Notes: generated by a model not told the origin, from the letters alone. Numbered from the stretch's first letter, positions 2,677 through 11,449 are shown. The stretch is 64,000 bases of DNA from an uncultured Alphaproteobacteria bacterium (GCA_934202735.1 CAKPYH010000001.1:75614-139613); one strand, 5' to 3'. Made by a program: numbers and translations.

Positions 2677-3596
2677 TCAGAATCCTTTGACTTACTATAC
2701 GACAAAGGATGAGATTTTTCAACTATCTTTTTTAATCTTTCGGGTAAAATATGCGTATAGACTTCGGTTGTGGCAATATCGGCATGCCCCAACATCTGCT
2801 GAACCGACCGTAAATCGGCATCGTGCGCGACCAGATGACTGGCAAAAGAATGACGCAAAACATGGGGCGAGACCCGTTCGGGATTCAACCCCGCCTGCAA
2901 GGCCACATGCTTCAAATGCTTGAAGAACCCATCACGCGTCAAGTGCCCTGTTCGCCCGGCGGACGGAAAGAGCCATTTATTGATACGACCGATTTTCAAG
3001 CGACTTTCCCGCAACACCAACCAATCTTCCAACGCCGCTACCGCCGGTGCATTCAAAGGCACTTGTCGTTCTTTTTGCCCTTTACCGACCACGGTCAACA
3101 TTCGGTTATCCGGCGGCAAATCCGCATGAGCCGTCACCGCTTCCACGGGCAGGCCGACCAACTCGCTGACCCGCAACCCGGACGCATACAAAACTTCCAA
3201 CATCGTGTACATACGGCGATCCGTTTGCGCCGCCACCCGCAACAAGGTGGCCACTTCTTCTTCACTTAAATATTTTGGCAAAGATTTACCCACCTTGGGC
3301 GACATCAGGTAATCGGTCGGGTTTTGTGTAATGATATTTTCCGAAAACAAATAACGATAGTACTCACGCAACGCCGATAACCGTCGGGCTTGCGTTTTGA
3401 CGGCCAGGCCGTTTTGGGCCAGTTGGTGCAGATAAGTTTGCAAGTCTTTGGCCGTTGCCCGGTTCAGACACGAATGATGCGCTTGTAAAAACGCCGTTAC
3501 GTCCGTCAGATCCCGCCGATAAGAATCCACCGTCCGGGGTGAAGCACCGCGTTCAGCCACCATCATTTCCAGAAACGAATCAATATATTTGTCCAA
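2673..3596 (-). CDS. tyrosine site-specific recombinase, XerC/XerD family (307 aa)
   Basis: MDKYIDSFLEMMVAERGASPRTVDSYRRDLTD... and the C-terminal HVLRHSFASHLVAHDADLRSVQQMLGHADIATTEVYTHI catalytic region (R..H..R..Y). Its stop TGA (2673-2675) overlaps the ATG (2674-2676) of the downstream lptG-like gene as ATGA. Confidence 0.8.
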   Translation of the reverse strand: MDKYIDSFLEMMVAERGASPRTVDSYRRDLTDVTAFLQAHHSCLNRATAKDLQTYLHQLAQNGLAVKTQARRLSALREYYRYLFSENIITQNPTDYLMSPKVGKSLPKYLSEEEVATLLRVAAQTDRRMYTMLEVLYASGLRVSELVGLPVEAVTAHADLPPDNRMLTVVGKGQKERQVPLNAPAVAALEDWLVLRESRLKIGRINKWLFPSAGRTGHLTRDGFFKHLKHVALQAGLNPERVSPHVLRHSFASHLVAHDADLRSVQQMLGHADIATTEVYTHILPERLKKIVEKSHPLSYSKSKDSE

Positions 3597-5094
3597 CGGT
3601 TTTGACCCACCTTTCGGTCAATAAAGCCCGCCGATTTTCGGCCGGAAGCACGGGGGCCAGCGCATCCAAAAGATTCTGTTCCAAAGCCGATGACCGATTC
3701 AACAAAATGACGGCGTTTAACACCGCCTTTCCTACCGGTCCGTCCCGGACCTGTCGCGCAACGGATTCGGCCACTGCCGGCGGATAATCCCGTACCCCGC
3801 TACCTGTCGGAATCCGGGTCAAATCCATCTCTGATACAGGCCATGCCGCGGGGGCGATATTCCATACCGACCGACAAAAGGCATCACGCTCACATGCGGC
3901 CAACTCCCTGTCCGCCGGTTCGGGGACCTGATCCGTCAACAGGGAAATCAAGACGGCCGTCCCGGGTACTTTTCGGTGAGCTTCGGCCCGGGCCAACAGG
4001 TCCGCCTTATCCGCCAAAGTCCACACGGCGCGCAAGGCTTTTTCCGATCGTATCAAAGGGGCCGTATCATCTCCCGTCATCATCAAAACCACCGGAGCCA
4101 CAGCCACCAATGCTGCACCGTCCGAGACACTACGCACATAATCTCGCACACGGGAACGCCGTTGTTCCGGGGGAACTGTCATCGCCTTCTGATACAGACG
4201 TGCCCGATATACGGGACCTTCAGTGAGTTTTGTGTTTTTCACCGGTACAGCCAACACACGTTCCCAATCCGTTCGGTTCAGGCCGGCCCGTTCGGCCGCG
4301 GTCAGGCGTACTGTTTCGCCTACATCCGGTGCCAAAGCCAACACACGCCATTGTCCGCGGTTCAAGGGCAACGTCAACACCCGATCGCCGAACACCCGGG
4401 CCGCCAAAGGTAATTCCCACACGGATATATCTGTCGCCGACAAACCGGTCGGCATCGGGTCGGTCGTCCGTTGATAAGCCCGATTCCCCGCAGCGGTCCA
4501 CAAGGCATGTCCGTCCGTTCCGGCTTCCCGATAGACATCAAATGCCAAGGCGGCCGGGGCTTCGTCTCCTGCCACATCGGCACAGACGGCTCGGATCCAC
4601 CGTTCATCCGGCCCAAACGCCGCCGGTGTCTCGCCGGCACACGCATCCTGATACCGGCCCAACGCAAACAAAGCGGTCGCCCGATCCCGGCGTATATCAT
4701 CGGTCCGGCGGGTCGGCGGTATTTGATCCGTCAACATCAAAACATCTTCAAACAAGCCTTGTGTCAGCAAGACATCGGCCCGGGCCCGCCAATAGGCTGC
4801 CTGTGCCGTATCCAGGCTTTTCACACCCCCTACATCGGTCATCAGGACCATGCGCACTATGGCTCGTTCAGCCCCCGATAGCGGCAAAGACTGTACGGCA
4901 TTCAGGTGTTGAATCACCGTTTCTGCCACAGGTTCGGTTCCAAAGACGTCGGCCGTAAAGGGCGTTTTTATGCCAACGGTTCCCTGCCCTAAACCTGACA
5001 AGTCATCTACCACCACTTCGGCTAGGGCAGTCCCACTCCAACACAGAGCCGACAAGAGCAAGCCCCACAAGCCTGCGTGTTTATTTTTGCCCAT
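3580..5094 (-). CDS. hypothetical exported protein (504 aa, GC-rich, N-terminal signal peptide)
   Basis: MGKNKHAGLWGLLLSALCWSGTALA|EVVVDD... Long ORF with Ala/Arg/Asp-rich composition and no family motif I recognise. Start overlaps the xer gene end by 17 nt. Confidence 0.6.
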   Translation of the reverse strand: MGKNKHAGLWGLLLSALCWSGTALAEVVVDDLSGLGQGTVGIKTPFTADVFGTEPVAETVIQHLNAVQSLPLSGAERAIVRMVLMTDVGGVKSLDTAQAAYWRARADVLLTQGLFEDVLMLTDQIPPTRRTDDIRRDRATALFALGRYQDACAGETPAAFGPDERWIRAVCADVAGDEAPAALAFDVYREAGTDGHALWTAAGNRAYQRTTDPMPTGLSATDISVWELPLAARVFGDRVLTLPLNRGQWRVLALAPDVGETVRLTAAERAGLNRTDWERVLAVPVKNTKLTEGPVYRARLYQKAMTVPPEQRRSRVRDYVRSVSDGAALVAVAPVVLMMTGDDTAPLIRSEKALRAVWTLADKADLLARAEAHRKVPGTAVLISLLTDQVPEPADRELAACERDAFCRSVWNIAPAAWPVSEMDLTRIPTGSGVRDYPPAVAESVARQVRDGPVGKAVLNAVILLNRSSALEQNLLDALAPVLPAENRRALLTERWVKTVGQIY

Positions 5095-5224
5095 AAATCA
5101 CCGTTGTTTCTACATCTCGTTGTGTGGGGGTAAAATCCCAAAAGGCCACAAAAGCCAAAAAGGCCGCCACCAACCCGATCACGATTTTAACGATCGGATA
5201 TTTTCTGTCTGCTTTTGAACGCAT
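5083..5224 (-). CDS. possible small membrane protein (47 aa) overlapping start of the 504-aa gene
   Basis: Manual translation gives MRSKADRKYPIVKIVIGLVAAFLAFVAFWDFTPTQRDVETTVIYGQK with one hydrophobic helix. It is below the ORF-track size cutoff and has no recognised RBS. Confidence 0.25.
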
Positions 5225-5309
5225 GTTTAACTCCTTGACTGCTGATTAAAAAAATGCTATGATCGGTTTCAGATTATTCTTTTTAATTTATTTTGTCAAG
5301 AAAGAACTG

Positions 5310-5894
5310 ATGAAACAGAAACTCATTCAACCTAAAATTATCCTGTTGGTCGGGATGATGGGGGCCGGAAAGACCAGCTTGGGACGCATTGTCGCCCGCC
5401 GCCTGGGCCTGCCTTTTTTAGACAGTGATAAGGAAATAGAGATGATGACGGGCTTTACCATTTCGGACCTGTTTGCCCGCTATGGAGAGCAAGAATTCCG
5501 CGCCGGAGAAGAACGGGTCATGGCTCGTTTGTTATCGGGGGAACCGTGTGTTTTATCTTCGGGGGGCGGGGCCTTCTTGTCCGAAAAGACCCGCCGGCTG
5601 GCGGCCCAAAAAGCCGTATCCGTCTGGATTAAAGCGGACTCGGACGTTATATCGGGTCGTACCCAGGGCCGCACGCATCGTCCGTTGGTCCCGGCGGCAG
5701 ATAACAAGCGGATTATTGAACGCCTGGTTCAGGAATGCTATCCCGTTTATGCCTCCGCGGACATTACCATTCCGTCTTATGATGAGCATCCGTCCAAAAC
5801 GGTCATCCGCCTGTTAAAGGCTTTGGCGGACCGTTCCGTCATCACACCGTGGACTCCCACCCGTAAACCATCAAGCAGGAAACAAAAATCATGA
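5310..5894 (+). CDS. aroK: shikimate kinase
   Basis: MKQKLIQPKIILLVGMMGAGKTSLGRIVARRLGLPFLDSDKEIE... with Walker A GAGKT and the SGGGA motif. The ATG at 5310 is preferred over the ORF-track ATG at 5259 on length. Confidence 0.85.
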   Translation: MKQKLIQPKIILLVGMMGAGKTSLGRIVARRLGLPFLDSDKEIEMMTGFTISDLFARYGEQEFRAGEERVMARLLSGEPCVLSSGGGAFLSEKTRRLAAQKAVSVWIKADSDVISGRTQGRTHRPLVPAADNKRIIERLVQECYPVYASADITIPSYDEHPSKTVIRLLKALADRSVITPWTPTRKPSSRKQKS

Positions 5895-7147
5895 CATCTT
5901 ATATTATTTTACTTTTTTTATTAGCGTGTTCTTTTTTCTTTTCGGGTACGGAAACCGCCATCACATCGGTTTCGTCCCCTTTGTTGCACGAGCAGGAAAA
6001 GCAAGGCAACCACCGGGCCGCCGTTTTGAACCGCTTGAAAAGTCAAAGTGATCGTTTGCTGGGGACTTTGTTGTTCGGCAATAATATCGTGAACATTGCC
6101 TCCACCGCCATCGCCACCCGATTGCTGATTGACGCATTCGGGCAGGAATGGGGGGTGATTTTATCCACTTTTGTGGTTAGTTTTGTCATTTTAATTTTCT
6201 CCGAGATTTTACCCAAGACGTATGCATTATCCATTCCCTACACTTTTTCTATGGCGGTCACACCGATCCTGTATGTGTGTATGATGGTGTTTCGGCCGTT
6301 TGTCGCGGGTATGAATTGGCTTTCCGGGCGGGTCATGTGCCTGTTGCCGCGGGCCAAGCAATCCGAAGACCTGGAAGCCAAATTAAAAGCCGAAATTCGC
6401 GGGACACTGGATTTGAACAGCGGGCGTGCGCTGGACCAGGAACAAAACATGCTGAAAAGCGTTTTGGACCTGGACGATGTGACGGTGGAAGATATTATGC
6501 AACATCGCAGTCATATTGTCTCTCTCAGCGTCCAAACACCGCAAGCCGAGTTATTTGACTTTATCGCCCGTACACCGTTCAGTCGCATACCGCTTTGGCG
6601 GGGCAAGCGGGATAACATTGTCGGGATTTTACATGTCAAAGCGGCGCTGCGTATGATCAATCAAATAGCGACCGGAGCCAAAAAAATCAATGTCATGGAT
6701 TATTGTGTCAAGCCTTGGTTTGTCCTGAATACAACGTCCCTGATGGATCAGTTGCACGCGTTCAAGAAAAAACGAGAACACTTTGCCTTGGTGGTTGATG
6801 AATACGGCGATGTACAAGGGCTTGTCACGCTGGAAGACGTTTTGGAAGAAATTGTCGGAGATATTTCCGATGAAAATGATACGGATAAATCCGACCTGAC
6901 CCCCATTAAAACCGATGCGGGAGCCTGGCGTGTAGACGGTGCCACTACTCTACGCGATTTGAACCGCCATTTTCATTGGGAATTGCCCGATGATAATGCT
7001 GCTACAGTGGCCGGATTGATTCTGTATCGGGCCGAAAAGATTCCGAAACAAGGCCAATCTTTAATGATTGACGGCTTTACGTTTACGATTACGGAACGTA
7101 CCGGCAATCGGCTGGTGACCATAGATATTTTACCCCCGGCGAACTAG
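5891..7147 (+). CDS. CNNM/TlyC-family transporter-associated protein (DUF21 TM region, CBS pair, CorC_HlyC C-terminus)
   Basis: N-terminal hydrophobic region MTSYIILLFLLACSFFFSGTETAITS, central CBS-like region and C-terminal ...LEDVLEEIVGDISDENDTD... typical of HlyC/CorC proteins. Start ATGA overlaps the aroK stop. Confidence 0.75.
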   Translation: MTSYIILLFLLACSFFFSGTETAITSVSSPLLHEQEKQGNHRAAVLNRLKSQSDRLLGTLLFGNNIVNIASTAIATRLLIDAFGQEWGVILSTFVVSFVILIFSEILPKTYALSIPYTFSMAVTPILYVCMMVFRPFVAGMNWLSGRVMCLLPRAKQSEDLEAKLKAEIRGTLDLNSGRALDQEQNMLKSVLDLDDVTVEDIMQHRSHIVSLSVQTPQAELFDFIARTPFSRIPLWRGKRDNIVGILHVKAALRMINQIATGAKKINVMDYCVKPWFVLNTTSLMDQLHAFKKKREHFALVVDEYGDVQGLVTLEDVLEEIVGDISDENDTDKSDLTPIKTDAGAWRVDGATTLRDLNRHFHWELPDDNAATVAGLILYRAEKIPKQGQSLMIDGFTFTITERTGNRLVTIDILPPAN

Positions 7148-7217
7148 AACGATCTTTTTTCCCACACCATATTCGTCTTATCGTCTGCGGCCTTGTCCCT
7201 AACAATCTCTCTCCCCC

Positions 7218-7325
7218 GTCATCTTCCGGGCTTGACCCGGGCACTCACTCTTACCTGTCATCTTCGGACGCTATTTTTCTTTCGTCATCTTCGGGCCCCA
7301 CCGGATATCCAGGGAACATAAAGTC
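7218..7325 (+). repeat. cluster of 3 copies of short repeat GTCATCTTC(C)GGGC[TTGACCCGG/CCCACCGGA...] (left sub-array 1)
   Basis: Copies begin at about 7218, 7256 and 7284. The unit at 7284-7316 is the reverse complement of 9457-9490. Confidence 0.8.
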
Positions 7326-7335
7326 TTCTTTCTTT

Positions 7336-7521
7336 TCACTGTGTTTCACGGGTACACGTCCGCATGTACAGGGTTCCCGTCAAAACATTGTGTTCCATCA
7401 CACACCGGGTAATGGTCAGGCTCTTATCGGGATTGACATGTACGTCCGAAACAACCGGCACCTGCGAACACGCCCCCAGGGACAAGGCAACACCCCATAC
7501 GATTAAAATCCGTTTCATCAT
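7336..7521 (-). CDS. small putative lipoprotein (61 aa)
   Basis: MMKRILIVWGVALSLGACSQ... is a signal peptide with lipobox L-G-A-C. SD-like GGAAGGTG lies upstream of the ATG. Confidence 0.45.
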   Translation of the reverse strand: MMKRILIVWGVALSLGACSQVPVVSDVHVNPDKSLTITRCVMEHNVLTGTLYMRTCTRETQ

Positions 7522-7758
7522 TCACCTTCCGAAAAGCCTTGATGAGAGGCGGCTGGAAGTTAGTAACTATTTTAGGAATAGTGCGATATATTCGGCCAAA
7601 AAGCATTATTCTATCGCCTTCCAGCCAAAGCCGGACAGGCAATTTTGCCTTATTTTCCTAAAAGGGTTACTACACCCCGGGGCAGGAATCACCTGCCTTA
7701 TTTTTACTTTATCCGATTTTCAGAGAAATGTCAAAGGGAAAGTGAATAAACGACAGAT

Positions 7759-7915
7759 GTCATCTTCGAGCGTTTATTTTCTTTTGTCATCTTCGGGCTT
7801 GACCCACACACTTACTCCCCCCCTGTCATCTTCGGTCCCTATTTTTAAGAATTGTCATCTTCGGGCTTGACCCGGAGATCCATAGGGAAGAGAAGTCAAT
7901 ATATTATAAGGATTT
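7759..7915 (+). repeat. cluster of 4 copies of the GTCATCTTCGGGC repeat (left sub-array 2); the terminal about 64-bp copy is the inverted partner of 9597-9664
   Basis: Copies begin at about 7759, 7785, 7823 and 7852. 7852-7915 (TGTCATCTTCGGGCTTGACCCGGAGATCCATAGGGAAGAGAAGTCAATATATTATAAGGATTT) is near-identical to the reverse complement of 9597-9664, with a 27-nt exact core AAATCCTTATAATATATTGACTTCTCT. Confidence 0.85.
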
Positions 7916-8191
7916 CAGTACTCCTGGATTTTCGCTTCCGCGGGACTGCGTAAATAAAAAGTTGCCGGTGGCAAGTTTTTATGCGCAAGGCAATGAGCCT
8001 TATTGAAAACAAGGACAACCCTTTGTCCGCCGTTTGAAATATAGGCGGAATTGAACAAGGTAATAGTGAGAAACCGGGAATGACAGAACAGTCCTTATTT
8101 CCACACCATCCCCCATACCACAAAGGGGCCCCAACCGGAACCCCCTTGCACACTTGAACCGTATCCTAAACATACAATCTACAGTCAATGG

Positions 8192-9328
8192 TTATTTTTT
8201 CCGGACACAGTACCCACCTGTCATTTCACGATTAGGACATTTCGCACATTCCGTTGCATCAGCTGCGACAGCAGCGTCATATTGACAATAAGTACAATAA
8301 CCATCACTACCTCTAAATTGTTTATCACTACATATAAGTGCACACCTCCCATCTAGCATAACACGATTAGAACACTTCGCACATTCAGACTCATCAGCCG
8401 GTGCCGCTATATTAGCCCCACAAGGCCAACAAAAGCCATCGTTGGCCATGAAACGGTTGGAACATTTAGCACATTCTGTCGCATTAGTAATCGTGAAATC
8501 CGACCGTTGATCACAAGGCCAGCAAGCACCATTATTGTCTCTCCAGCCATCATCACATATAGGGACACATTCCCCGTTGTCGTTCATTTCACGATTGGGA
8601 CACTTCGCACATTCCGTTGCATCTGCTGAGATCGCAGTGTTATAATTACAAGGCCAACAAAAGCCAGTGTTGTTCATGAAACGATTAGGACACTTCGCAC
8701 ATTCTGTCGCATCAATAACCGTGATAGCATAGGCTGTACTACAAGCATAACAGCTACCCCACTTCTCTTTCATCGGCTTGTCCCCTGGGCAATCGTTGTC
8801 GCAGGTTTCATCGGCCACACAGGTCCCGTTTTCATCATGCTGACAATAACCGCAGGTCGGGGTATTCCCGCCCTCACCCGCGGCCGGCGCAAAGGTGAAC
8901 ACAATGGTATTGCCGTCTTCGGCACAGGTATAATCCGCTTTCACTCCGTTCTCCCACACCTTGGTGGCCCCCAAAGTTATTGTACGCGCCATCTGCACCC
9001 CGTTATTCAAAACGTGATTGCAAACGGGCCGAGTAATATCCGATACCGTCAAGGTAAATCCGGGATCCGCCGCAGCCAACGCCACCGGAAAATCACCGAT
9101 TTTATTGGCAAACTCCGCGTCCAGTGTCGTGGCCGATACACCCGTCCCTAACAACGTATATGTTGACAAAGCAACCGCCCGTTTATTCACCCCGTCTATA
9201 ATATCATTGGCTTTCAACCGATTCATGGCGTATGTATAGCCCGCTATGCCACCGATGGATAAAATCCCCATAATGGCCAAGACCCCCAGCATTTCCACCA
9301 TACTGCGGCCGGTTTCATTGTTTCTCAT
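8192..9328 (-). CDS. type IV pilin/pseudopilin-like protein with cysteine-rich tandem C-terminal modules (about 378 aa from ATG 9328)
   Basis: The ORF-track ORF is 8192..9514. The internal start MRNNETG|RSMVEMLGVLAIMGILSIGGIAGYTYAM is preferred, as it gives a class-III (prepilin) leader with Gly at -1 and Glu at +5 followed by a roughly 20-aa hydrophobic helix. SD-like AAGGGAAAG lies upstream. The C-terminal half contains 5-6 modules ATECAKCPNR(F/E)M..G.C.PC (C-x2-C...C-x2-C), mirrored by DNA repeats of about 120-140 bp period at about 8225, 8362, 8450, 8590 and 8680. Confidence 0.7.
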   Translation of the reverse strand: MRNNETGRSMVEMLGVLAIMGILSIGGIAGYTYAMNRLKANDIIDGVNKRAVALSTYTLLGTGVSATTLDAEFANKIGDFPVALAAADPGFTLTVSDITRPVCNHVLNNGVQMARTITLGATKVWENGVKADYTCAEDGNTIVFTFAPAAGEGGNTPTCGYCQHDENGTCVADETCDNDCPGDKPMKEKWGSCYACSTAYAITVIDATECAKCPNRFMNNTGFCWPCNYNTAISADATECAKCPNREMNDNGECVPICDDGWRDNNGACWPCDQRSDFTITNATECAKCSNRFMANDGFCWPCGANIAAPADESECAKCSNRVMLDGRCALICSDKQFRGSDGYCTYCQYDAAVAADATECAKCPNREMTGGYCVRKK

Positions 9329-9369
9329 TTTGCTTTCCCTTTCTTGATTGAGTTTTCTCTTTGGCTCGG

Positions 9370-9398
9370 AGTGTATCACTATCTCTGTTTTTCTGCAA
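9370..9398 (-). promoter_or_regulatory. candidate sigma70-type promoter for the pilin-like gene (-35 TTGCAG, 17-nt spacer, -10 TACACT on minus strand)
   Basis: Read by eye in the 120-bp gap between the gene start and the right repeat array. Weak match. Confidence 0.2.
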
Positions 9399-9450
9399 CA
9401 GTTATTTTGAACAATTTTGAATTTTTTTGATACGGTGGTTTGTTTTAATT

Positions 9451-9664
9451 GACTTCTTTCCTGGATCTCCGGTGGGGCCCGAAGATGACAGGAAAGCGTG
9501 AGTACCCGGGTCAAGCCCGAAGATGACAGGAAAGTGTGAGTGTCCGGGGCCCCTTACCTTGTCATTCCCATGAAAATGGGAATCCATTGGGCACTAAAAT
9601 CCTTATAATATATTGACTTCTCTTTACCCTGGATCTCCGGTGGGGCCCGAAGATGACAAAAGAA
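9451..9664 (-). repeat. right array of the GTCATCTTCGGGC repeat family in inverted orientation (reads ...GCCCGAAGATGAC...), 4-5 copies
   Basis: Contains CCGAAGATGACAGG three times (9478, 9518, 9647) plus TTGACTTCT(T/C)TT(T/A)CC..TGGATCTCCGGTGGGGCCCGAAGATGACA units at 9451 and 9614. It is the inverted partner of 7218-7325 and 7759-7915. Confidence 0.85.
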
Positions 9665-9750
9665 AATAAACGCCCGAAGAGCCAAAGGGAAGAAATCCTT
9701 GTCCCCCTGTGTATCGTGCCACAGACTTTCTAACAGGTACCCCGGCCTGA

Positions 9751-9784
9751 CAAAAAAACACCCCGATCAACCGATGGGGTGTTC
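9751..9784 (-). terminator. rho-independent terminator downstream of rplQ
   Basis: Hairpin ACACCCC-GATCAACCGAT-GGGGTGT followed on the minus strand by a T-run (A7 on the plus strand at 9752-9758), directly 3' of the rplQ stop. Confidence 0.6.
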
Positions 9785-9799
9785 TTTCCTAACCGATAC

Positions 9800-10312
9800 T
9801 TATTCTGCTTTTGCAGTGGCCTTTTTGGCTTTTTCGGCTTTCGGTTCTTTTTTGGCCTTAGCGGGTTTCTTTTCCGCTTTAACTTCTTCGGCCGGAGTTT
9901 CGGCTTCCGCCGCGACTTCCACGACTTGCCCCGAATCTTTACCTTTGGCCGTTATATCGCGGTCCACCAATTCCACAATCGCCATAGGGGCGCAATCACC
10001 AAAGCGGAAACCCGCTTTTAACACGCGCACATAGCCACCTTTACGTTCTTTGTACCGCGGCCCCAAAACGGTCAGCATTTTTTCCACGGCCTTGTCATCA
10101 CGCAGGAAAGACAGCAATTGCCGCCGGATATGGAGTGTATTTTCTTTACCTTTTGTGACCAATTTTTCAAAGATTGGCCGCAATTCCTTGGCTTTCGGCA
10201 AAGTTGTTTTAATTTGTTCATGCTTGGTCAATGCGACCGCCATATTGGCGAACATAGACCGCCGATGAGCAATTTTTTTATTTAATGTTCTTTTTTTAAA
10301 ACCGTGACGCAT
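9800..10312 (-). CDS. rplQ: 50S ribosomal protein L17 with about 50-aa Lys/Ala/Glu-rich C-terminal extension
   Basis: [47 protein letters not shown]... then ...[37 protein letters not shown]. Start chosen at MRH (ATG 10312) rather than the track ATG 10336. Confidence 0.9.
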
Positions 10313-10432
10313 TTTGTTTTTCCTTTCATGTTGCAAGGCCTTGAACGCGCAAAGCCGATAGTGTTAGCCGGAACATCCACACCCGTCAGGCAATGTAAAG
10401 TCCGGACGCCGGAGCCGTCCCCGGCGATTTGA

Positions 10433-11449
10433 TTACGATTCCGAATCCACGGTTGCGGACAAGGCTTCCAAGTCTTCGGGAGGCCACCCTTCCACCTGCA
10501 TACCCAGGTGCAAGTCCATCGTTGCCAGCAATTCTTTGATTTCGTTCAAGGACTTGCGGCCGAAGTTCGGTGTCCGCAGCATTTCGGATTCCGTTTTTTG
10601 GACCAGGTCGCCAATATAAATAATGTTGTCGTTTTTCAGGCAGTTGGCCGAACGGACAGACAATTCCAGTTCATCCACCTTTAACAACAGGTTTTTGTTG
10701 AACGGTAATTCGGCGATCTTGTCTTCTATGGTCGCTTCTTCCGGTTCTTCAAAGTTGATAAAGACTTTCAACTGTTCCTGCAAAATACGGGCCGCCAAAG
10801 CAACGGCATCTTCCGGCGTAATCACGCCGTTTGTTTCCACCGTCAGGTACAGTTTATCATAGTCGGTTTGTTGACCCACACGGGCATTGACCGTCTTATA
10901 GATCACCGACTTGACCGGCGAGTAAATAGAGTCAATCGGCAACAATCCGATCGGACAATCTTCCGGCCGATTTTGTTCTGCCGTCACATAGCCTTTACCG
11001 GTGTTGACCATCATTTCAATAGAAATACTGGCCCCTTTATCCAAGGTACAGATGACCAAGTCCGGATTCATCACTTCCACCGTATGATTGGTCACAATCT
11101 GACCGGCCGTCACGACCCCCGGACCCGTCGCATTCAAGTAAATGCGTTGCGGTCCTTCGGCATCCACGCGCAAGGCCAATGATTTAATGTTCAGGATAAT
11201 TTCCGTCACATCTTCACGGACCCCGGGAATGGAAGAAAATTCATGCAGAACACCGGCGATTTTGATAGCCGTCACCGCGCCACCTTGTAAGGAAGACAAC
11301 AACACCCGCCGTAAAGCATTTCCCATTGTCGTTGCAAACCCGCGTTCCAACGGTTCCACAACCATGGTAGCCTTACGCCCCGGAATGATTTGTTCGTCCG
11401 CGCATTTGTCCGGTTTAATCAATTCCTGCCAATTTTTCTGTATCATCAT
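10433..11449 (-). CDS. rpoA: DNA-directed RNA polymerase alpha subunit
   Basis: 338 aa. ...[23 protein letters not shown]... N-terminal domain and alpha-[32 protein letters not shown]. Confidence 0.92.

Follow-up and report, generated by a model that had tools for sequence, protein, structure and literature searches.

The repeats that bracket a pilin-like gene in an uncultured gut alphaproteobacterium are very probably mosaic hairpin arrays of the NTS/SRM (Ssn-related motif) class, which flank a hypervariable surface-gene cassette at several loci. The DNA analysed is a stretch of 64 kb (GCA_934202735.1 CAKPYH010000001.1:75614-139613; hereafter the window), and the region under study, 7178-9683, comprises the cassette flanks of the pilin-like gene. 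It holds three arrays, all intergenic: array C (9447-9683) upstream of the pilin-like gene, array B (7759-7950) between the pilin-like gene and a small lipoprotein gene, and array A (7178-7335) between the lipoprotein gene and a convergent CNNM/CorC gene. Taken as a whole, the evidence makes it rather probable that these arrays mark a recombination-prone, hypervariable pilin-like cassette and shape its recombination. Hairpin arrays around key surface genes are known already, from a publication of 2025 and, in the case of Neisseria, from work since 2000-2007; what sets this case apart is its strict mirror polarity, its abundance of half units and its confinement to one pilin-like cassette family, to which a possible cassette-mediated chromosomal inversion may be added.

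It was reported by Chenal et al. in 2025 that the Neisseria NTS has the sequence CGTCATTCCCGCGMAVGCGGGAATCYRG, containing the dRS3 repeat ATTCCC-N8-GGGAAT, and that its variant NTSvar reads CGTCATACTCGGGNNNNNCCCGAGTATC (PMC11893778). The wider class of SRM comprises the motifs targeted by Ssn, a group of small GIY-YIG nucleases whose cut in single-stranded DNA falls directly upstream of the hairpin and on one strand only; NTS/SRM repeats cluster around surface-protein genes, an architecture like that of an insertion sequence (IS) has been noted for the SRM-ssn-SRM unit, and the role of these nucleases and motifs outside Neisseria was explicitly left open (PMC11893778). In Neisseria, the hairpins occur in alternation with spacer families, forming neisserial intergenic mosaic elements (NIMEs), whose flanking genes show above-average diversity (PMC1797815).

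The full unit in the window is an imperfect palindrome, GTC-ATCTTCGGG-CTTGA-CCCGGAGAT-CC, which also exists as a variant with a CCCCA loop, and intact copies are predicted to fold as single-stranded DNA. In general form, the hairpin consists of GTCAT, a stem of 7-9 bp with a loop of 5-6 nt, and ATC. Covariation was examined in all fetched DNA (1.7 Mb), in sequences chosen solely by the anchors GTCAT, CTTGA and ATC at fixed spacing. This selection returned 163 sequences against a chance expectation of 0.05, representing 41 distinct forms; across these forms, pairing at the unconstrained 7+7 stem positions is seen in 95.9% of cells compared with 75.7% in shuffles, double-sided changes are found in 69 cells compared with 19.6 in shuffles, and sliding the 3' partner drops pairing to 24-50% of cells. 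Since stem pairing and double changes both exceed the shuffled values, the hairpin is a conserved structure with covarying stems, and it is maintained in many lineages. The GTCAT flank is invariant and gives the hairpin its orientation. An identical hairpin, GTCATCTTCGGGCTTGACCCGGAGATCC, is present in many of 96 metagenome loci retrieved by exact hairpin match; in a scan of genome contigs with the short pattern GTCATCTTCGGGCNNNACC, the matches listed were mostly due to chance, and the real hairpins among them are only those of L101, L107, L043, L078, L052, L081, L100 and L120 (the prefix L denotes a retrieved locus).

Within the window, the motif GTCATCTTCGGGC with at most two mismatches has 14 matches where 1.55 are expected, a count reached by 0 of 100 shuffles, and 10 of the 14, the GTCATCTTCGG-type units, fall within a span of 2.5 kb (7218-9657). 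Seven units are on the plus strand (7218, 7257, 7284, 7759, 7786, 7825 and 7854) and three on the minus strand (9477, 9515 and 9645), with a degenerate eleventh at 9658-9683 (-). An earlier reading made from this DNA alone (the sequence-only reading) had placed copies in plus orientation at 7218-7325 and 7759-7915 and reversed copies at 9451-9664, and had proposed a family like repetitive extragenic palindromic (REP) sequences or miniature inverted-repeat transposable elements (MITEs); the copies are located as it described, and the family can now be specified as NTS/SRM class. The matches at 743 and 37313 are plain coding sequence without a hairpin, and TTGACCCGG, which is the loop and right arm of some units, is unenriched by itself (22 matches, 21 expected). 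No GTCATCTTCGG unit was found outside the cassette region in the 64 kb, about 60 other intergenic regions of the window being without one, and units are clustered at cassette flanks likewise in L122, L123, L124, L221 and L224. Polarity is constant at every locus: upstream GTCATCTTCGG units are on the strand of the gene and downstream units on the opposite strand, and hairpins of the GTCATTCCC type have the polarity opposite to that of the GTCATCTTCGG units. Some truncated units retain merely a 4-5 bp stem, and four are half units consisting of the left arm and an AT-rich tail. These half units (7257-7283, 7759-7785, 7825-7853 and 9658-9683) sit 26-29 nt upstream of fuller units, a layout that occurs also in the unrelated contigs L133, L161, L172, L180, L198 and L206.

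The published SRM search pattern, HGTCWYN(0-2)YYVSBRHN(0-5)WNVSBRGN(0-2)RNCYNB (PMC11893778), matches at 9461-9490 (-) and 9629-9658 (-), two matches compared with 0.3 expected in shuffles. The second hairpin of the arrays fits the dRS3 consensus exactly, once in the window (9564-9583) and further times in L002, L122, L123, L221 and L224, and GTCATTCCCGCGGAAGCGGGAATCCAG, in L002 and L123, nearly equals the NTS consensus. Judged by its sequence, the hairpin of the window is apparently a different stem variant of the NTS/SRM class. A 165-nt spacer module, module X, ends in dRS3-type hairpins, but these are not the dominant hairpin type, and the definition of NIMEs is tied to Neisseria; the arrays described here, in which intact hairpins, truncated copies, a dRS3-type hairpin and spacer modules are mixed, are regarded as an analogue of NIMEs and not as a member.

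The hairpin type of the window also adjoins single-domain GIY-YIG genes of ~95 aa, in a Rhizobiales genome (L101), in a Patescibacteria metagenome-assembled genome (MAG) with the identical hairpin (L107), and in metagenome contigs retrieved by exact hairpin match (L135, L170, L198, L205 and L215). This adjacency is found at 5 of 96 exact-hairpin loci compared with 0 of 117 chance-match loci (Fisher p = 0.018). In a set of 5.8 billion proteins, a hairpin-adjacent GIY-YIG protein has >3,000 matches, none of them tied to this species. As a separate observation, L101 holds at 4958-5480 a GIY-YIG pseudogene with an in-frame stop and with window-type hairpins (right arm GAGGATCC) on both sides, and at the L107 and L170 loci the GIY-YIG gene is intact and has the hairpin overlapping its 3' end.

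Cassettes homologous to that of the window, with mirror-oriented arrays, are found after rplQ, gyrB and a HIT-family gene in the same or closely related species. The cassette follows gyrB in L122 and L221/L222 (L221: ERZ4567976 NODE_35); in L123 it follows the HIT-family gene and precedes a second family member of 848 aa. L001 (ERZ28615150 scaffold_12; 99.7% identity) and L002 (97%) are collinear with the window, the latter with one additional half unit in the array. L124 and L224 (ERZ15610534 NODE_70) are 99.5% identical to the window across 3.8-4.5 kb of the secY-rplQ flank and are therefore of the same species, yet their arrays are rearranged and their genes different. Between strains, the arrays differ by whole units or modules. 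Module X has 96% identity to L123 6426-6590, downstream of the gene there as in the window; in L124 (4651-4803) it is upstream of the gene and inverted. Such placement would be compatible with past nested inversions, and exchange between mirror-image arrays can also explain it. The lipoprotein gene and its arrays (7284-7771) occur again after the gyrB-side cassette in L221 (95.5% over 490 bp), so the lipoprotein gene is part of what is repeated. Where the shared sequence begins on the left depends on the locus: at the hairpin after rplQ and gyrB, but not before the -10 region in L123. Repeat scan and locus alignment revealed no target-site duplication at the ends of the arrays; direct repeats at 7725-7740 and 9676-9691 were considered as one and rejected, their distances from the inverted-repeat ends being unequal. 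Given variable cassette ends and no target-site duplication, recombination fits better than transposition.

Two of the retrieved loci deserve mention in their own right. In L224 (3627-5700; compare L221 3574-6430 and window 7148-9800), the rplQ flank is joined through the pilin-like cassette to alaS-recA, and in L221 the same alaS region, at 98.3% identity to L224, follows the gyrB-side cassette; such a junction would be expected from an inversion whose endpoints are two inverted cassettes, one on each side of the origin. L223, from a more distant relative, has a pilin-like gene without such arrays.

The cargo is supported, by its sequence and a predicted structure, as a type IV pilin-like protein whose N-terminal half is conserved and whose C-terminal half is hypervariable. 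The N-terminus, MRNNETG/RSMVEMLGVLAIMGILS, resembles a class III signal with Gly at -1 and Glu at +5, and the residues G7, R8, S9 and E12 are invariant in 40 homologues. In the AlphaFold2 model (pLDDT 81.9), a helix at 12-59 is followed by a beta-sheet domain; the best relevant PDB folds are the type IVb pilins TcpA and those of enterotoxigenic Escherichia coli (ETEC), with probability ~1, weak E values of 3e-3 to 1e-2 and TM scores of 0.38-0.49. No match was obtained against Pfam and NCBIfam models, and an exact look-up of the window protein and of P0003 returned no record; relatives number in the hundreds in gut metagenome assemblies. Among seven genes compared, the first 570 nt show 95-98% identity without grouping by locus, and the cysteine-rich C-terminal half, built of ECAKCPNR modules in variable number, has 27-50% protein identity between different alleles. 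These modules are encoded by internal direct repeats at 8221-8756 (an 83-nt unit present four times and a pair of 140-nt repeats, 228 nt apart, with 76% identity); module counts vary from allele to allele, the proteins ranging from 321 to 476 aa. The cysteine-rich, pilin-like surface gene and the small lipoprotein gene that the sequence-only reading had named between the repeats both agree with what was found.

The inverted partners pointed out in the same reading, with a supposed 27-nt core, are a real inverted repeat whose exact core is 28 nt. The arms span 48 nt each (7872-7919 and 9593-9640) with 90% complementarity, and they extend to partners of 66 nt (7854-7919 and the reverse complement of 9593-9657) with the exact run AAGAGAAGTCAATATATTATAAGGATTT at 7888-7915. 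The outward-facing TTGACT described for each partner is likewise present, at 7894-7899 (-) and 9614-9619 (+); it is part of a pair spacer, and the hexamers were ruled out as promoters because neither partner has a -10 hexamer at promoter spacing. Among the 96 metagenome loci, a second, reversed hairpin often lies 15-45 nt after the first, so that the pair ends in GTCAT...ATGAC; by a strict criterion, 18 of 84 hairpins have a reversed partner downstream and 4 of 84 upstream. The layout of forward hairpin, spacer and reversed dRS3-type hairpin occurs also in unrelated metagenome contigs. The window has two such tail-to-tail pairs of ~97 nt, at 9561-9657 (-) and 7854-7950 (+), the second hairpin of the latter being decayed, and the inverted partners are two copies of this ~97-nt hairpin pair. 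An unrelated environmental contig, L185, has a regular 84-nt tandem array of forward hairpin, spacer and reversed second hairpin (eight hairpin units) directly 3' of a pseudopilin-like open reading frame (ORF) (3500-4000 and 4358-4876).

The likely promoter of the pilin-like gene (Table 1) lies in unique sequence directly upstream of the gene, within the inverted repeats. It is kept in all cassette copies, in L002, L122 and L124 and, as TTGCAA, 17 nt, TGATACACT, also in L123, which retains the promoter spacing and extended -10 although its sequence farther upstream is unrelated. None of the arrays falls within the predicted transcription unit: they are located upstream of the promoter, after the rplQ terminator, or beyond the 3' stem-loop and terminator-like hairpins. 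A scan found 8 terminator-like sites in the region compared with 2.7 expected, located in module X, in unique sequence or in genes, and none in GTCATCTTCGG units; an Rfam search at the gathering threshold and at E <= 1 gave nothing relevant. The position of the arrays outside the transcription unit and the lack of an Rfam match favour a DNA-level over an RNA-level role.

Table 1. Coordinates of the units, spacers, genes and signals in and around the three arrays of the window.
Feature	Position	Strand	Evidence
Degenerate unit relic, directly after the CNNM/CorC stop codon	7178..7199	+	77% identity to TTGTCATCTTCGGGCTTGACCC
39-nt unit GTCATCTTCCGGGCTTGACCCGGGCACTCACTCTTACCT, only a short 5-bp hairpin (7226-7240) left	7218..7256	+	DNA fold -5.9 kcal/mol
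Half unit: left arm GTCATCTTCGG and AT-rich tail, without hairpin	7257..7283	+	Repeat scan, fold
CCCCA-loop unit, right arm mutated (GGATATCC), with spacer reaching the lipoprotein stop codon	7284..7335	+	No fold
Small lipoprotein gene, 61 aa, signal peptide, LGAC lipobox	7336..7521	-	ORF
Lipoprotein promoter-like site TTGACA, 17 nt, TAAAGT, outside the repeats	7706..7734	-	Promoter scan
Half unit	7759..7785	+	Repeat scan, fold
39-nt unit, right arm lost	7786..7824	+	Motif match, fold
Half unit	7825..7853	+	Repeat scan, motif match
Intact hairpin GTCATCTTCGGGCTTGACCCGGAGATCC, 9-bp stem, CTTGA loop	7854..7881	+	DNA fold -6.6 kcal/mol, z = -3.0
Hairpin-pair spacer: 28-nt exact core common to 9586-9630, and TTGACT	7882..7925	+	Inverted-repeat scan
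Second hairpin of the pair, degenerate, dRS3/NTS type CGCAGTCCCGCGGAAGCGAAAATCC	7926..7950	-	Read from sequence
Spacer module X, RS-like, 165 nt, GTCATTCCC-type ends, two terminator-like hairpins (7962-7974, 8013-8028)	7925..8089	-	
13-bp GC-rich stem-loop 3' of the pilin-like gene	8120..8149	-	RNA fold -29.7 kcal/mol, z = -4.7
Pilin-like gene, 378 aa	8192..9328	-	ORF
Likely sigma-70 promoter of the pilin-like gene, TTGCAG, 17 nt, TGATACACT	9370..9398	-	Read from sequence
Intact hairpin (9463-9489, CCCCA loop) and truncated spacer	9447..9489	-	DNA fold -8.9 kcal/mol
38-nt unit, shortened hairpin	9490..9527	-	Repeat scan, fold
3' fragment of 38-nt unit	9528..9560	-	Repeat scan
dRS3/NTS-type hairpin GTCATTCCCATGAAAATGGGAATCC, reversed partner of 9631-9657	9561..9585	+	DNA fold -6.6 to -7.0 kcal/mol
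Hairpin-pair spacer with 28-nt core and TTGACT	9586..9630	-	Inverted-repeat scan
Intact hairpin GTCATCTTCGGGCCCCACCGGAGATCC	9631..9657	-	DNA fold -4.1 kcal/mol
Degenerate half unit GGCTCTTCGGGCGTTTATTTTCTTTT, outermost on the rplQ side	9658..9683	-	Repeat scan
rplQ intrinsic terminator	9752..9788	-	RNA fold -20.7 kcal/mol, then U7

Several of these features recur elsewhere in the window or at other loci. According to the repeat scan, the unit at 7284-7335 is an inverted partner of 9457-9489 and 9627-9680; the outermost half unit on the rplQ side is an inverted partner of 7763-7798, with 97% over 36 nt. The degenerate second hairpin at 7926-7950 has an intact form, GTCATTCCCGCGGAAGCGGGAATCC, at the matching place in L002 and L123. 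The segment 9447-9489 is the promoter-proximal left end of the cassette and is kept in L002, L122 and L124, and the stem-loop 3' of the pilin-like gene is kept in all cassette copies. The rplQ terminator lies between the ribosomal operon and the arrays.

With regard to mechanism, the hairpins would act at the DNA level by extruding on single-stranded DNA; an Ssn-type nuclease encoded elsewhere in the genome would bind them and cut the GTCAT strand directly upstream of the hairpin; and this cutting, together with the shared array sequence, would shape cassette recombination by limiting or channelling allele replacement, with gene conversion between copies and occasional chromosomal rearrangement as further outcomes. 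This proposal is drawn from the Neisseria work and from the GIY-YIG adjacency in other organisms. That an Ssn-type nuclease cuts the hairpins here, and that cutting and array sequence govern the recombination of the cassette, is a tentative suggestion that falls somewhat short of probable. A stronger version, in which the mirror arrays are a programmed variation system whose Ssn-type nicks on opposite strands start gene conversion or exchange, or mobilise the cassette as an "Ssn element", is decidedly improbable; if it were true, such programmed variation would yield the hypervariable C-terminal domains and cassette-to-cassette chromosomal rearrangement, and Ssn/SRM would serve endogenous antigenic variation in a gut commensal, beyond the transformation effect in Neisseria.

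A number of points weigh against the class assignment and the role in recombination. The exact SRM pattern is found in only 2 of ~11 units, the CTTGA-loop copies being one position off, and the Neisseria NTS and NTSvar consensus sequences have no match in the window within 5 mismatches. The hairpin-adjacent GIY-YIG proteins match PF01541, and their membership of Ssn (cd10448) is putative. A search of all ORFs by regular expression and phmmer found no GIY-YIG/Ssn ORF in the window or in the ~30 kb of same-lineage loci; since no Ssn gene was found in this ~94 kb of lineage DNA (the 64-kb window and ~30 kb of other loci), the link to the nuclease is made here by indirect argument. The related loci were retrieved via the pilin-like gene, and the statement that units occur at cassettes only thus rests on the same ~94 kb. 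Intact hairpins account for only 3-4 units, most others being truncated, and the truncated units may be inert. In addition, the rplQ-alaS junction of L224 could be a chimeric assembly across the ~750-bp conserved 5' region.

Other explanations of the arrays were weighed on the same evidence. It is unlikely that they are functionless debris, that is, decaying selfish hairpin copies left where insertion is tolerated and reshuffled by recombination, with no role for the gene: the many truncated or half copies, the array-free pilin-like gene of L223 and the scatter of the identical hairpin over many unrelated lineages would suit such an origin, but the polarity is strict and conserved at every locus, the units keep to the cassette flanks and are missing from the other intergenic regions of the window, and the promoter-proximal hairpin is conserved. 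Polarity of the same kind, with hairpins pointing at the gene from both sides ("-> gene <-"), is seen around most GIY-YIG genes as well, and this speaks for a cargo-carrying mobile element in which mirror hairpins delimit the pilin-like gene, with or without the lipoprotein gene, and are moved in trans, the 97-nt pairs being MITE-like derivatives. The presence of cassettes at three or more loci, the frequent tail-to-tail pairs with their excess of downstream partners, and the IS-like architecture noted for SRM-ssn-SRM units (PMC11893778) point the same way; such an element is nevertheless distinctly unlikely, because neither target-site duplication nor constant ends were found, the shared sequence starting at the hairpin at some sites but at the -10 region in L123, because array content is different at every locus, and because Ssn is without known transposition activity. 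The suggestion of a mobilisable segment in the sequence-only reading therefore holds as far as the several sites are concerned and fails at the ends, which differ by site and lack a duplication.

An RNA-level role like that of classical REPs, with the hairpins serving as terminators or 3'-end stabilisers of the flanking mRNAs, is very unlikely. The hairpins are intergenic and, in array A, downstream of the convergent CNNM/CorC and lipoprotein genes, and terminator-like sites are in excess in the region, as would suit this role; those sites are not in the GTCATCTTCGG units, however, the upstream arrays between the rplQ terminator and the promoter are probably untranscribed, most units cannot fold, Rfam gave no match and SsnA has no action on RNA. 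Least of all can the segment 7916-9596 be regarded as a site-specific invertible segment flipped by a recombinase between the 66-nt repeats so as to switch the pilin-like gene or its neighbours, which is extremely improbable. A real inverted repeat of 48-66 nt does bracket the gene, the position of module X in L124 and in the window is explicable by two nested inversions, and a tyrosine recombinase gene is located 3.6 kb from the closest unit. Against this, the predicted promoter and the gene are both inside the repeats, so flipping would not uncouple them and would leave the gene on; the arms represent an element that many lineages carry, and are only ~88% identical; and the TTGACT hexamers are without -10 partners. 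The recombinase, which is the sole one within 10 kb, is of the XerD/XerC housekeeping type beside aroK (NF001399, 341 bits), and XerD was rejected as a dedicated invertase on that score and position. In the strain comparison that had been recommended as a check, 8 of 8 assemblies agree on the orientation of the gene with respect to its upstream neighbour. An inversion switch, and with it the phase variation suggested in the sequence-only reading, is not supported, and the reading of the arrays as NTS/SRM-class mosaics that mark and shape a recombining cassette is preferred.

The arrays may be compared with several known systems. Like the Neisseria NTS/dRS3 NIMEs with SsnA, they have a GTCAT flank that gives polarity and is followed by an imperfect palindrome, their hairpins alternate with spacer modules of 20-150 nt in intergenic arrays, and the arrays cluster at surface-protein genes, including pilin loci, vary between strains and flank unusually diverse genes. 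Unlike them, they belong to an uncultured gut alphaproteobacterium and are known here from sequence alone, the dominant stem is ATCTTCGGG/CCCGGAGAT with a CTTGA or CCCCA loop, half units are abundant, and polarity around the gene is strictly mirrored. The SRM that flank ssn genes in Wolbachia, Rhizorhabdus and others (PMC11893778) are similar in architecture, and two copies in the window match their published pattern; the gene between the mirrored hairpins is here pilin-like, however, and not a nuclease. Neisseria pilE/pilS similarly consists of several pilin-related copies, within repeat arrays, whose 5' parts are conserved and whose 3' parts vary, whereas each copy here has its own promoter and a full-length ORF, silent cassettes are lacking, no initiator of the G-quadruplex (G4) or Sma/Cla type was identified, and only identity patterns suggest gene conversion.

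REP sequences and bacterial interspersed mosaic elements (BIMEs), as well as the REPINs with REP-associated tyrosine transposases (RAYT) of Enterobacteria and Pseudomonas, are likewise short extragenic imperfect palindromes that form mosaics and inverted pairs and are presumably recognised as single-stranded DNA hairpins. REPs, however, bear a 5' GTAG-type tetranucleotide and have a Y1 transposase, compared with the 5' flank GTCAT here, and they are dispersed genome-wide at hundreds of sites instead of being focused on one gene family. Correia elements and other MITEs resemble the 97-nt pair with its inverted termini GTCAT...ATGAC, which is non-coding and present in many copies and lineages, but no target-site duplication was found here, the spacer is highly variable and the units are mostly in arrays. 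In fimS, hin, the Bacteroides promoters and the R64 pilV shufflon, inverted repeats also bracket pilus or surface-gene DNA; those switches have an adjacent dedicated recombinase, uncouple a promoter or exchange coding ends, and coexist in both orientations, none of which was seen here.

As regards the surroundings, the CNNM/CorC gene at 5891-7147 (+) is the sole plus-strand gene locally, and the remaining local genes, among them rplQ (9800-10336) and rpoA (10433-11449), are on the minus strand; the rest of the window consists mostly of ribosomal and housekeeping genes, and a plasmid similarity search gave no match. By its RpoA, the organism falls among uncultured Alphaproteobacteria. A 504-aa ORF at 3580-5094 (-) overlaps the start of xerD by 17 nt and has no Pfam/NCBIfam family match. 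A 168-aa ORF at 7364-7870 (+), which runs antisense through the lipoprotein gene and a repeat array and is annotated as a gene in a public assembly (L001 7459-7965), is almost certainly spurious. Upstream of the lipoprotein gene, 7595-7710 (+) has an Rfam match below threshold, to the ribosomal protein L20 leader (28.5 bits where the gathering threshold is 58.7, E = 0.007), which is probably due to chance.

Hairpins in other organisms gave some further observations. In a Treponema MAG (L052, 1720-2440) and in L081 (520-760), the hairpin GTCATCTTCGGGCTTGACCCGAAGATC and its siblings lie in frame within an 898-aa ORF and encode the repeated peptide ADLRVKPEDD, which resembles the palindromic elements in Rickettsia genes. 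In human-gut contigs of another organism (L126/L182 compared with L136, L155, L201, L202, L204 and others), a common CTTGT-loop hairpin with the extended stem GCGTTTCC/GGAAACGC has a shared left flank and two different right flanks, and the differing right flanks may reflect a rearrangement or insertion breakpoint at the hairpin.

In practical terms, such repeats break metagenome assemblies and yield spurious ORF calls, of which the 168-aa ORF mentioned above is an example. For the biology of the family, the locus is a clean natural case, in a human-gut alphaproteobacterium, in which to ask about the role of Ssn and its hairpins outside Neisseria. Between strains that are 98.9-99.5% identical in housekeeping genes, the flanked genes are hypervariable, and the hairpins, confined to the cassette flanks in the DNA analysed, their fixed polarity and the hypervariable genes support the idea that the arrays mark, and may shape, recombination at host-exposed genes, for the testing of which the locus supplies concrete substrates.

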